Shown here: one piece after another, positions 10,710 through 12,032 of the stretch
Layout: every line of letters starts with the position of its first letter
How positions within the stretch are numbered: the stretch's first letter is position 1
From: Deltaproteobacteria bacterium
GTDB lineage: Bacteria > UBA10199 > JACPAL01
Reading direction: 5' to 3'
Assembly (NCBI GenBank): GCA_016180855.1
Contig: JACPAL010000002.1
Coordinates: 245,788 to 309,787 of the forward strand
DNA length: 64,000 nt
Position numbers and translations under genes: made by a program
Notes under the pieces: model-generated
Told to the model about the DNA's origin: nothing
What the model saw: only the letters and a program-made list of their open reading frames with translations
Database searches by the model: none

Positions 10710-12005
10710 ATCCCAAGGAATCACAACAACATCTTCAGAAAGCGGGTGGGCAGATTCTGCCGGCGCGATAACCAATCCCTTTTCAATTTTTAGATGAGGA
10801 TAAGCTTCTCTAAATGCCTGAATGCCTCGAGTATCATGACCGGTCGGGCGGCTATTCCCCTTGACCTCAATGGGGTAAAATTTTCCGTTGTATTCCAGCA
10901 AGAGATCCACTTCCGCACCTCCGTGAGATCGCCAATGGTAGAGAATCGGTGGGGGATTTAGCAGTTGGCACTGTTTTCGGACTTGGCTCACCATGAGTGT
11001 CTCAAAGAGGCTTCCCCAAAGGGGATGTGCCGAGATTGCATCGGGTGTTGAAATCGCCTGGCCAAAACAGGCGAGGCCCGTGTCACTTAAGTATCCTTTC
11101 CCTTTCGTGCTGATTCTTTTGATTGTATTCCCGGAGTAAGGTGGAATCTCGTACCATTGATAAGTGGCCTTGAGGAGATCGAGCCAACGATGGGCTGTTT
11201 GAGGTGTTAGGCCTAATTCACGCCCTATCTCACTGTAGTTGATCTCTTGAGCCGTAAGGGCCCCGCACAAACGAAAGAATCGGGCAAAAGATTGAAGATC
11301 CGAGATCTCTGCCAGAAGACGAACATCTCGTTCCACATAGGTTCTCAAATAAGCAGCGTGGAATGGGGGGATATTTTGTATCTCCAAAAATTGTGCCTCG
11401 GGAAGTGAGCCGCGCCAGATTGTCTCAAAAAGAGTGCCAGGGAGTTTGAGGCGAGAACATTTCATGACAAAATCCTCGCTACTTTTGGTGAGCCATTCTC
11501 CGAGCCATGAGCTGCCTGGTGTTGTATCGCTGATTTCCTGGAGACTGAAACCATCCAGGTCCAAAAAGACCGCTCGTCCAGCAAGGCTTTCTGCAAGAAG
11601 TTTCATGACCCCCCACTGCTGGGAGCCGGTCAAAAGATATTGTCCCGGAGGGCGCTCTTTTTCCAATCGTCTTTTGATGGTAGAGACAAGCTCTGGTGCG
11701 TATTGAATTTCATCCAGGATAACCGGCGGTTTTCTGTGGTTTAAGAACAGTTCCGGGTCGGCTCGGGCATTTTCAATATCAATGCTGGGGTCAAAGACAA
11801 CCCGTGAGATGTTTGGATAGGCATGCTCGAGAAGGGTACTTTTCCCTACCTGTCTTGCACCACTAACAACAACAACGGGAAAAACCTTGAATAGCTCTAT
11901 TAATCTCTCTTCTAAGCCTCTTTTGAGGTAGTGTCTCTCCATCCCTTGAATTTTAGTGATCTGATCACCAAATATCAAGGAAGTTCTGTTTTTAGTTACC
12001 GACAC
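10701..12005 (-). CDS. AAA+ ATPase of the DUF4143 family
   Basis: Walker A VVVSGARQVGKSTLLE and the characteristic C-terminal DUF4143 region are present. It is on the opposite strand and interrupts the T3S locus. Confidence 0.75.
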   Translation of the reverse strand: MSVTKNRTSLIFGDQITKIQGMERHYLKRGLEERLIELFKVFPVVVVSGARQVGKSTLLEHAYPNISRVVFDPSIDIENARADPELFLNHRKPPVILDEIQYAPELVSTIKRRLEKERPPGQYLLTGSQQWGVMKLLAESLAGRAVFLDLDGFSLQEISDTTPGSSWLGEWLTKSSEDFVMKCSRLKLPGTLFETIWRGSLPEAQFLEIQNIPPFHAAYLRTYVERDVRLLAEISDLQSFARFFRLCGALTAQEINYSEIGRELGLTPQTAHRWLDLLKATYQWYEIPPYSGNTIKRISTKGKGYLSDTGLACFGQAISTPDAISAHPLWGSLFETLMVSQVRKQCQLLNPPPILYHWRSHGGAEVDLLLEYNGKFYPIEVKGNSRPTGHDTRGIQAFREAYPHLKIEKGLVIAPAESAHPLSEDVVVIPWDLQ

Positions 12006-12032
12006 AACTCGACCGGAACCGCCTACCGATAA
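12005..12032 (+). promoter_or_regulatory. candidate FliA (sigma-28)-type promoter CAACTCG-N13-ACCGATAA
   Basis: The -10 matches the sigma-28 consensus GCCGATAA at 7 of 8 positions, 27 nt before the ATG at 12060. An identical architecture recurs at 16849..16876. Confidence 0.45.

Follow-up and report, generated by a model that had tools for sequence, protein, structure and literature searches.

The type III secretion locus and its promoter-like motif

The stretch of DNA analysed here, which we call the window, comprises 64,000 nucleotides (nt; 64 kb) of contig JACPAL010000002.1 from the Deltaproteobacteria bacterium assembly GCA_016180855.1. It carries a type III secretion locus and, within it, a bipartite promoter-like motif, CAACTCG-N13-RCCGATAA, that stands in front of genes for putative secreted proteins. 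Positions 1-10709 hold the plus-strand secretion apparatus, starting with the end of SctJ, two small open reading frames (ORFs) and a sigma-factor gene; two substrate-like operons lie further downstream, and the features are collected in Table 1. We consider it quite probable, from the arrangement and conservation described below, that the three copies of the motif in the window (sites 1-3) form one promoter class serving the substrate operons of this Myxococcota-type locus, and that the class is most likely read by the sigma factor encoded there.

A first-pass annotation made from this DNA alone had reported two copies of the motif, and both are present as described. Sites 1 and 2 lie on the plus strand, are the only two matches to CAACTCG-N13-RCCGATAA in the window and end 27 and 21 nt before the ATG codons at 12060 and 16898, respectively; no match occurred in any of 100 dinucleotide-preserving shuffles of the window (expected 0, observed 2). 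The downstream block agrees with the sigma-28 -10 consensus GCCGATAA at all eight positions in site 2 (16869-16876) and at seven of the eight in site 1, which reads ACCGATAA (12025-12032), and in both copies the CAACTCG heptamer is placed 13 nt 5' of this block. Two is the correct number of exact copies, but the full set is larger. A relaxed scan of the window recovered site 3, which is absent from the first-pass annotation, and assemblies of the same species that extend the locus leftward show two extra copies just left of the window. The locus therefore holds at least five sites, three of them inside the window. A search with a consensus of the style G-CAACT-N16-CCGATAA-T (N16) recovers all three, and a position-weight scan of the window, in which site 1 scores 22.9, gave no sites besides these; the remaining housekeeping part of the window (~42 kb) contains zero sites.

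Sites 1 and 2 are truly intergenic. The longest ORF of the minus-strand DUF4143 AAA ATPase gene extends to 12005, the first base of site 1, but the gene most likely starts at the ATG at 11942, which leaves site 1 outside it. This ATG sits behind a sigma-70-like promoter of its own (minus strand, 11978-11950), which was assigned to the DUF4143 gene and rejected as a candidate relevant to the sites. Because an intrinsic terminator lies between operon 1 and site 2, a separate transcript must begin at site 2. An Rfam scan of the whole window found nothing, and thus no known RNA element accounts for the conservation of the motif.

Table 1. Features of the locus and copies of the motif in related loci. 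Positions are those of the window unless a related locus (L number) is named; lengths of proteins are in amino acids (aa).
Feature	Position	Strand	Description
Site 3, promoter-like	539-566	+	CAACTTG-N13-CACGATAC; 21 nt 5' of the ATG (588) of the 132-aa ORF
Two small ORFs	588-1345	+	132 aa and 120 aa; between site 3 and the sigma gene
Sigma-54-type promoter	1479-1494	+	TGGCAC-N5-CTGCA, TGGCACGAGAACTGCA; 27 nt 5' of the sigma gene ATG
Sigma-factor gene	1521-2357	+	278 aa, group 3, FliA/WhiG-like; Pfam Sigma70_r2 and r4; proposed reader of the three sites
Apparatus genes 3' of the sigma gene	2317-10709	+	YscI-like, FliG_C-like, SctL, SctN, YscO-like, FliK/HpaP-like
Apparatus genes, continued	within 2317-10709	+	FliM-like SctQ, FliN-like, FliO, SctR, SctS, SctT
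DUF4143 AAA ATPase gene	10701-~11942 (longest ORF to 12005)	-	
Site 1, promoter-like	12005-12032	+	CAACTCGACCGGAACCGCCTACCGATAA; CAACTCG-N13-ACCGATAA; 27 nt 5' of the 1027-aa gene ATG
Operon 1	12060-16362	+	1027-aa protein (N-terminal GFE..PGERFGL motif) and 401-aa protein; substrate-like
Intrinsic terminator	16652-16681	+	13-bp stem with 11 G-C pairs, then T-run; between operon 1 and site 2
Site 2, promoter-like	16849-16876	+	CAACTCGGCTACTTAGAACGGCCGATAA; CAACTCG-N13-GCCGATAA; 21 nt 5' of the 433-aa gene ATG
Operon 2	16898-21861	+	433 aa, 517 aa, LcrH/SycD-type chaperone, 287 aa, second LcrH/SycD-type chaperone
FHA-domain sigma-54 activator	21830-23236	-	Enhancer-binding protein, Sigma54_activat domain; also in relative L002, 14848-16254
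Ser/Thr protein kinase	23255-25702	-	PEGA domains; adjoins the FHA-domain activator
Left-flank copy	L089 335-362		CAACTCA-N13-CCCGATAA; before a 186-aa ORF with needle-like C-terminus
Left-flank copy	L090 2130-2156	-	Before a divergent 703-aa gene
Copy in GCA_016180845			CAACTTG-N13-GCCGATAA; before the 403-aa ortholog of the 433-aa gene
Copy in GCA_016180845			CAACTTG-N13-CCCGATAA; before the 1081-aa counterpart of the 1027-aa gene
Copy in GCA_016180845			CAACTTA-N13-CCCGATAA; before the ortholog of the 132-aa ORF (proteins 58% identical)
Copy in GCA_016180845			Before a 180-aa needle-like ORF
Copy in GCA_016180845			Before a divergent 904-aa gene
Relative's site at the position of site 1	L002 3352-3379		CAACTTG-N13-CCCGATAA
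Site 2 equivalents	L002 9933-9960; L006 1555-1582		Spacer diverged
Site 3 equivalents	L087 9105-9132; L007 1023-1050		CAACTTA-N13-CCCGATAA (L087)

Conservation and enrichment in related loci

A scan of GTDB species genomes for SctR gave 80 loci, with SctR identities of 58-68% in the close lineage and 52-60% in the Myxococcaceae (Myxococcus, Corallococcus, Pyxidicoccus, Archangium and others). In the relative with assembly GCA_016180845 the motif stands 5' of the orthologs of all three genes that it precedes in the window and at two other positions; the spacers are unrelated in sequence to those of the window and the gap length is identical. In a third lineage (L006), CAACTCG-N13-GACGATAA precedes the homolog of the 433-aa gene. 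For the 433-aa protein itself the database holds only four homologs, all from uncultured 'Deltaproteobacteria' assemblies, which are too few for a broad family. When the orthologous upstream regions are aligned, the only long invariant runs are GCAACT and CGATAAT, accompanied by a short TGTA a few bases 3'.

Enrichment was measured over 84 non-redundant related type III secretion loci (1.37 Mb in total). The pattern CAACT-N16/17-CGATA[AC] has 21 matches on the strand of the secretion genes (+) and 0 on the other, against 0.47 expected from 100 first-order Markov resamples (standard deviation 0.68, maximum 3), an enrichment of ~45-fold, and each of the 21 is followed, after 20-77 nt, by an ORF of 60 aa or more. 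A stack of 16 close-lineage sites refines the consensus to G-CAACT-N16-CCGATAA-T. CCGATAA is near-invariant in these related sites; the G before CAACT, the C before CGATAA and the trailing T are conserved though they fall outside the search pattern, and the 16 positions between the blocks carry almost zero information. Many Myxococcaceae sites have a spacer that is 1-2 bases shorter and an upstream block that reads CGCAACTT or GGAAACT. At a lower threshold, ~20 position-weight matches appeared in the 3' coding part of Myxococcaceae sigma genes (AGCAACTCCTCGAAGAAGAGGACGATAA, encoding KQLLEEEDDN); these were rejected as coding look-alikes and left out of the strict count.

In its anatomy the motif matches a sigma-factor promoter: two blocks without palindromic symmetry, always in one orientation, are set apart by a spacer of constant length and free sequence, just 5' of start codons. 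In the solved open complex of Pseudomonas aeruginosa sigma-28, GCCGATAA occupies positions -15 to -8 and the -35 element positions -36 to -30 (PMC12784957). With CCGATAA set at -14 to -8, GCAACT falls at -36 to -31, the canonical -35 position, and the predicted start falls on a short TGTA(R)G block, that is at ~12038-12040 for site 1 and ~16884 for site 2. This block lies 4-6 nt 3' of CGATAA (window 12037-12041 and 16883-16888) and is found at the same position in L002, L006 and L007 and in the Myxococcaceae sites. It is located about where transcription should begin, and in the window the ribosome-binding site comes immediately after it; a start there would therefore give predicted leaders of merely ~14-20 nt.

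The -10 block agrees with that of sigma-28 promoters and the -35 block does not: GCAACT occupies the place, 15 nt 5' of GCCGATAA, where TAAA would be found, the 'flagellar' -35 consensus that is also quoted in PMC8325347. The first-pass annotation had proposed a non-canonical -35 element. It does differ from TAAA, but what is conserved is GCAACT and not the whole heptamer CAACTCG. A search of the window for canonical TAAA-N15-GCCGATAA, allowing up to two mismatches, returned ten weak, chance-like matches, none of them convincing; the best (59833-59859) lies inside an opposite-strand ORF and was discarded. As far as sequence comparison can tell, the motif is a real, evolutionarily conserved promoter type and not a mere duplication, and it follows sigma-28-type promoter logic, carried over to a non-flagellar type III system and altered in its -35 specificity.

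The sigma factor of the locus

The best NCBIfam models for the sigma factor are WhiG and FliA_WhiG, and its best solved relatives are WhiG (6PFJ) and FliA (9WSF, 6PMI and 1RP3). Orthologs sit at the same place in the gene cluster in 46 loci, out to the Myxococcaceae, with identities of 68-82% in the close lineage and ~40% in the Myxococcaceae. M. xanthus SigF might be an ortholog.

In the P. aeruginosa protein, D66, Y76 and R97 read the -10 and extended -10 elements, and Q228 makes a base-specific contact to the -35 element at -36/-35 (PMC12784957). The -10-reading residues are kept in the sigma factor of the locus: the equivalents of D66 and R97 are Asp and Arg, and Y76 is replaced by Phe, which is still aromatic. 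The block FKTF[AS]YYRIKGAIYDGLRKTGWIPR is conserved across the family. The recognition helix of region 4.2 is different and reads LSKSWTSRLH, where FliA and WhiG have V[ST]ESRVSQ[LI]H; S224 is unchanged, but Arg takes the place of Q228. Of 120 database homologs, 119 have SKSW[TVA]SRLH without change, and the distant Myxococcaceae orthologs read QSKSWASRLH. The promoter with a kept -10 block and a changed -35 block is thus mirrored by a protein with a kept sigma-2 region and a changed sigma-4 helix. It is because of this correspondence, the main argument for the pairing, that we assign the promoters to the sigma factor of the locus as their probable reader.

Weighing of the assignment and of the alternatives

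Several points weigh against this assignment. The -10 block of site 3, CACGATAC, is weaker than the others and agrees with the consensus at five of eight positions (559-566). The information inside the CAACT and CGATA blocks is partly circular, the sites having been collected by that pattern. A sigma-70-like element, TTGGCA-17-CATAAT (10/12), lies at 16786-16814, ~35 nt 5' of site 2. As to the protein, the first-pass annotation had spoken of a FliA-family factor, and FliA/WhiG is its best family match, but the match to TIGR02479 FliA_WhiG (148.9 bits, E=1.8e-43, model positions 1-222 of 224) remains under the curated cut-off of 189.6. Pfam detects region 2 (46-118) and region 4 (206-252) and does not detect region 3; the ~82-aa segment between the two is covered by full-length alignments to the WhiG and FliA structures named above. 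No anti-sigma partner was found among the small ORFs: a search for FlgM-like proteins, which are short and divergent, gave no Pfam match even at E<=5 among those at 588-1345 and in relatives. Finally, the pairing of factor and motif, the transcription starts and the order of the cascade proposed below are what we infer from the observed motif, its conservation, position and strand bias, the synteny and residue pattern of the sigma factor, and the conserved sigma-54 promoter. The suggestion in the first-pass annotation of a private sigma-28 regulon can be kept as regards a sigma-28-like promoter class, given the conserved blocks and spacing, the strand-specific enrichment and the -35 helix of the co-located sigma factor; 'private' holds locally, for the 64 kb of this genome and the few kb of flank that were examined.

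The alternative that survives best is that the promoter is read by another alternative sigma factor, encoded outside the window, such as one of the extracytoplasmic function (ECF, group 4) type, as HrpL reads the hrp box. The ECF -35 consensus is GGAACTT, and GCAACT(T) differs from it by a single base, which must be added to the points listed above; the GGAAACT block of many Myxococcaceae sites is also near it, ECF -10 elements likewise contain CG, and a sigma-54 activator upstream of a dedicated sigma factor is Hrp-like logic. We nevertheless judge this alternative improbable. No ECF sigma factor is encoded in the window, and in 46 genomes these loci are linked to no sigma factor but the group-3 FliA/WhiG-like one. 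The -10 block CCGATAA is a sigma-28 signature and is neither CGTC nor CCACNNA, and so differs from that of the hrp box (GGAACC-N15/16-CCACNNA, with an ECF sigma factor in the locus). The linked factor, moreover, retains the sigma-28 determinants for the -10 element and carries its family-specific change exactly in the helix that reads the -35 element.

Slightly less probable again is that the two blocks are the site of a transcription factor, either an activator acting over a weak sigma-70 promoter or a repressor with its operator, and not sigma elements. In its favour, a factor site and a promoter element cannot be told apart by conservation alone, AraC-type activators binding around -35 are used by many type III secretion systems, and a sigma-70-like element lies upstream of site 2. 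This element, however, is not conserved in the relative L002, and the locus has no conserved DNA-binding regulator, of AraC type or otherwise, besides the sigma-54 activator. A factor site would also have to account for an oriented, non-palindromic pair of blocks with a fixed, information-free spacer, whose 3' block is a known -10 consensus and which ends 20-77 nt before starts. The element at 16786-16814 also resembles a sigma-54 -24 box (TGGCAC), without the GC of a -12 box.

That the similarity is a functionless remnant of duplication, as might be thought from the GFE..PGERFGL motif and the nearly identical 20-nt coding stretch that make the two downstream genes N-terminal paralogs, is to all intents excluded because the comparative data contradict it: the upstream regions have nothing in common beyond the two blocks, orthologs keep these blocks despite diverged spacers, genes that are unrelated have the motif in front of them too (needle-like ORFs, the 132-aa ORF, the divergent 703/904-aa gene and Myxococcus ORFs of 122-128 aa), and the matches in related loci differ in their spacers and so are not assembly copies of one sequence. 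A promoter class read by the sigma factor of the locus is the explanation that we carry forward.

Genes behind the motif and their surroundings

The genes preceded by the motif encode fast-evolving proteins that match no known family and have low-complexity N-termini; several have needle- or rod-like C-termini, and genes for LcrH/SycD chaperones come after some of them. The 1027-aa and 401-aa proteins of operon 1 matched no known family. In operon 2 the chaperone genes (LcrH/SycD-type) are at 19781-20386 and 21274-21861, and the C-termini of the 433-aa and 517-aa proteins, RHYSRFNV and RHLSRFNT, are related. The 132-aa protein behind site 3 is hydrophobic at its centre and needle/rod-like at its C-terminus; the 120-aa ORF after it is fast-evolving, and similarity to its positional counterpart in a relative could not be detected. 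In a Myxococcaceae assembly, an ORF behind the motif matched a Pfam needle family with E=6e-6, below the cut-off of that family. The first-pass annotation regarded the downstream genes as 'late' substrates. Needle-like genes of this species and of relatives have the promoter as well, and the class is better described as one of exported proteins than as strictly late.

The promoter-driven proteins end in RHYSRFNV, RHLSRFNT, QVIANFRG, NDMIGRIR and HNMIQNMRGM (window 18140-18199, 19690-19749, 21200-21262 and 930-986; L089 402-962), C-termini that are similar among themselves and similar to those of axial (needle/rod) proteins. Their resemblance suggests a family of polymerising or tip-forming exported proteins.

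In the 1027-aa and 433-aa genes, the PGERFGL motif is specified by a 20-nt stretch, CCRGGGGAGMGGTTTGGGTT, that hardly varies, and most synonymous positions are kept as well. It is found in both paralogs of both species (window 12102-12121 and 16937-16956; L002 ~3500-3519 and ~10041-10060) and was flagged as a small hairpin by the terminator scan; besides encoding a peptide motif, it could act as a signal at the RNA level near the 5' end of the reading frame.

Corallococcus coralloides (L022, 14994-16171) has three tandem identical 72-aa ORFs (MATIDVFNKAV...AAVNNLK), and similar arrays are present in L017, L023, L025 and L026. Each of these ORFs lies behind its own GGAAACTCC-N-CGATAA-tccttttgtagc site. 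The products have the size of needle subunits and a helix-loop-helix look; the Pfam needle match is at E=0.085 only.

The apparatus itself includes flagellum-like parts that are uncommon in injectisomes, namely the FliG_C-like protein, the FliM-like SctQ and the FliO homolog (2846-3841, 7222-8148 and 8530-8847); this set is consistent with an early-branching, Myxococcota-type system. Accessory or selfish genes occupy the gaps between the secretion operons, in places that vary by genome. Here the DUF4143 AAA ATPase gene follows SctT; the relative L002 has a PIN/PhdYeFM pair after SctT (2467-3134) and a ParE pair with a DUF4143 gene before the 403-aa gene (7908-9800). The rest of the window is housekeeping (PrkA/SpoVR, the trp operon, LeuRS, IleRS, MurJ and others), and neither flagellar genes nor an ECF sigma factor were found there. 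Two ORFs of 755 and 867 aa (41833-46700) with no Pfam match lie inside the tryptophan operon, between trpE/G/D (38648-41780) and trpC/F/B/A (47448-50909).

A proposed cascade and its significance

The promoter in front of the sigma gene has the features of a sigma-54 promoter (TGGCAC-N5-TTGCW, with GG and GC 10 nt apart), and an enhancer-binding protein is present to go with it. TGGCAY-N5-NTGCA is likewise found 5' of the sigma gene in six relatives (L008, L009, L011, L013, L014 and L087). Because the sigma gene has this conserved promoter and an FHA-domain activator with an adjacent kinase is encoded nearby, a regulatory cascade is likely. The Ser/Thr kinase would provide the upstream signal input, and the FHA-domain activator together with sigma-54 would switch on the promoter at 1479-1494. 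As the sigma gene heads the apparatus operon, the factor would be made together with the apparatus. It would read the -10 block CGATAA in the manner of sigma-28 and, because the recognition helix of its region 4.2 differs, GCAACT (-36 to -31) where sigma-28 reads TAAA, and would then transcribe the substrate operons. What emerges is a likely three-tier hierarchy in a non-flagellar type III system, leading from sigma-54 to the sigma-28-like factor to the substrates, in an order of tiers that we infer from the genes and promoters.

In our literature search, neither a sigma-28-like factor linked to type III secretion nor a GCAACT/CCGATAA promoter turned up for Myxococcota. For the Myxococcus type III secretion system T3SS* (MXAN_2434-2464), reviews of myxobacterial predation list no sigma factor in the cluster, and they describe its substrates and effectors as unknown and homologs of the needle and translocon as absent (PMC10433427, PMC10849154). 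A promoter class that is conserved and linked to a sigma factor in the locus offers a direct, sequence-based way to list candidate substrates, which already include needle-like small proteins and LcrH-chaperoned proteins, and the factor is a simple genetic handle for them. A sigma-28 relative in which reading of the -10 element is kept and reading of the -35 element is changed, with a defined change in the helix, would be a natural experiment in the evolution of promoter specificity, and a three-tier hierarchy in a non-flagellar type III system bears on the origin of injectisome-like systems from flagella.

We can also offer a broader and rather speculative proposal, which we think more likely to be wrong than right: the 'needle-less' systems of Myxococcota may have kept the ancestral flagellar logic, with a re-tuned, sigma-28-derived factor kept inactive until assembly of the apparatus is complete, perhaps by an anti-sigma factor that is exported and encoded among the small ORFs, and then firing one promoter class in front of every secreted protein. 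If this were true, GCAACT-N15-17-CGATAA would be a tag for listing the substrates and effectors that the Myxococcus predation T3SS* secretes, among them needle-like proteins described in the literature as absent.

Comparison with known systems

Like the system described here, Chlamydia is a non-flagellar type III secretion organism that times late genes, secretion-related ones among them, by sigma-54 and a sigma-28-type factor. The Chlamydia sigma-28 promoter is canonical-like, and the chlamydial sigma-28 is not embedded in a substrate locus in the way seen here. Control of the late genes by sigma-28 and sigma-54 in that organism has been described (PMC7482065).

HrpL of Pseudomonas syringae and Erwinia is also a sigma factor dedicated to a type III secretion system and switched on by sigma-54 with enhancer-binding proteins, and its bipartite promoter, the hrp box, precedes each substrate or effector operon, so that the regulon can be predicted from sequence, as in the present case. 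HrpL, however, is an ECF (group 4) factor whereas the factor here belongs to group 3 and is FliA/WhiG-like, the -10 elements differ, and the activator here is an FHA-domain protein paired with a Ser/Thr kinase.

WhiG of Streptomyces and Rubrobacter is a case in which the sigma-28 family has been re-used for sporulation or type IV pili (PMC8325347). Like our factor, it belongs to the flagellar sigma clade and has been recruited to a programme other than that of the flagellum, and it is the best match of known structure. WhiG keeps TAAA and GCCGATAA and is controlled by RsiG and cyclic di-GMP, whereas here the -35 element is changed and no homolog of RsiG or FlgM was found.

The fourth comparison is with flagellar class 3 promoters, read by sigma-28 (FliA) as TAAA-N15-GCCGATAA under the FliA-FlgM checkpoint. 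Here the -35 element is GCAACT and not TAAA, the helix is SKSWxSRLH and not SESRVSQLH, the factor scores below the curated FliA/WhiG threshold, no FlgM-like anti-sigma factor was detected by Pfam among the small ORFs, and the system is a non-flagellar one of the Myxococcota type with LcrH-type chaperones. Both systems have the gene of a group-3 sigma factor amid those for type III export and share the -10 element (G)CCGATAA and its distance from the -35 element, and in both the promoter precedes genes for exported axial proteins and substrates and not those for the export apparatus. A sigma-54 tier above sigma-28, as proposed here, is likewise found in many flagellar hierarchies.

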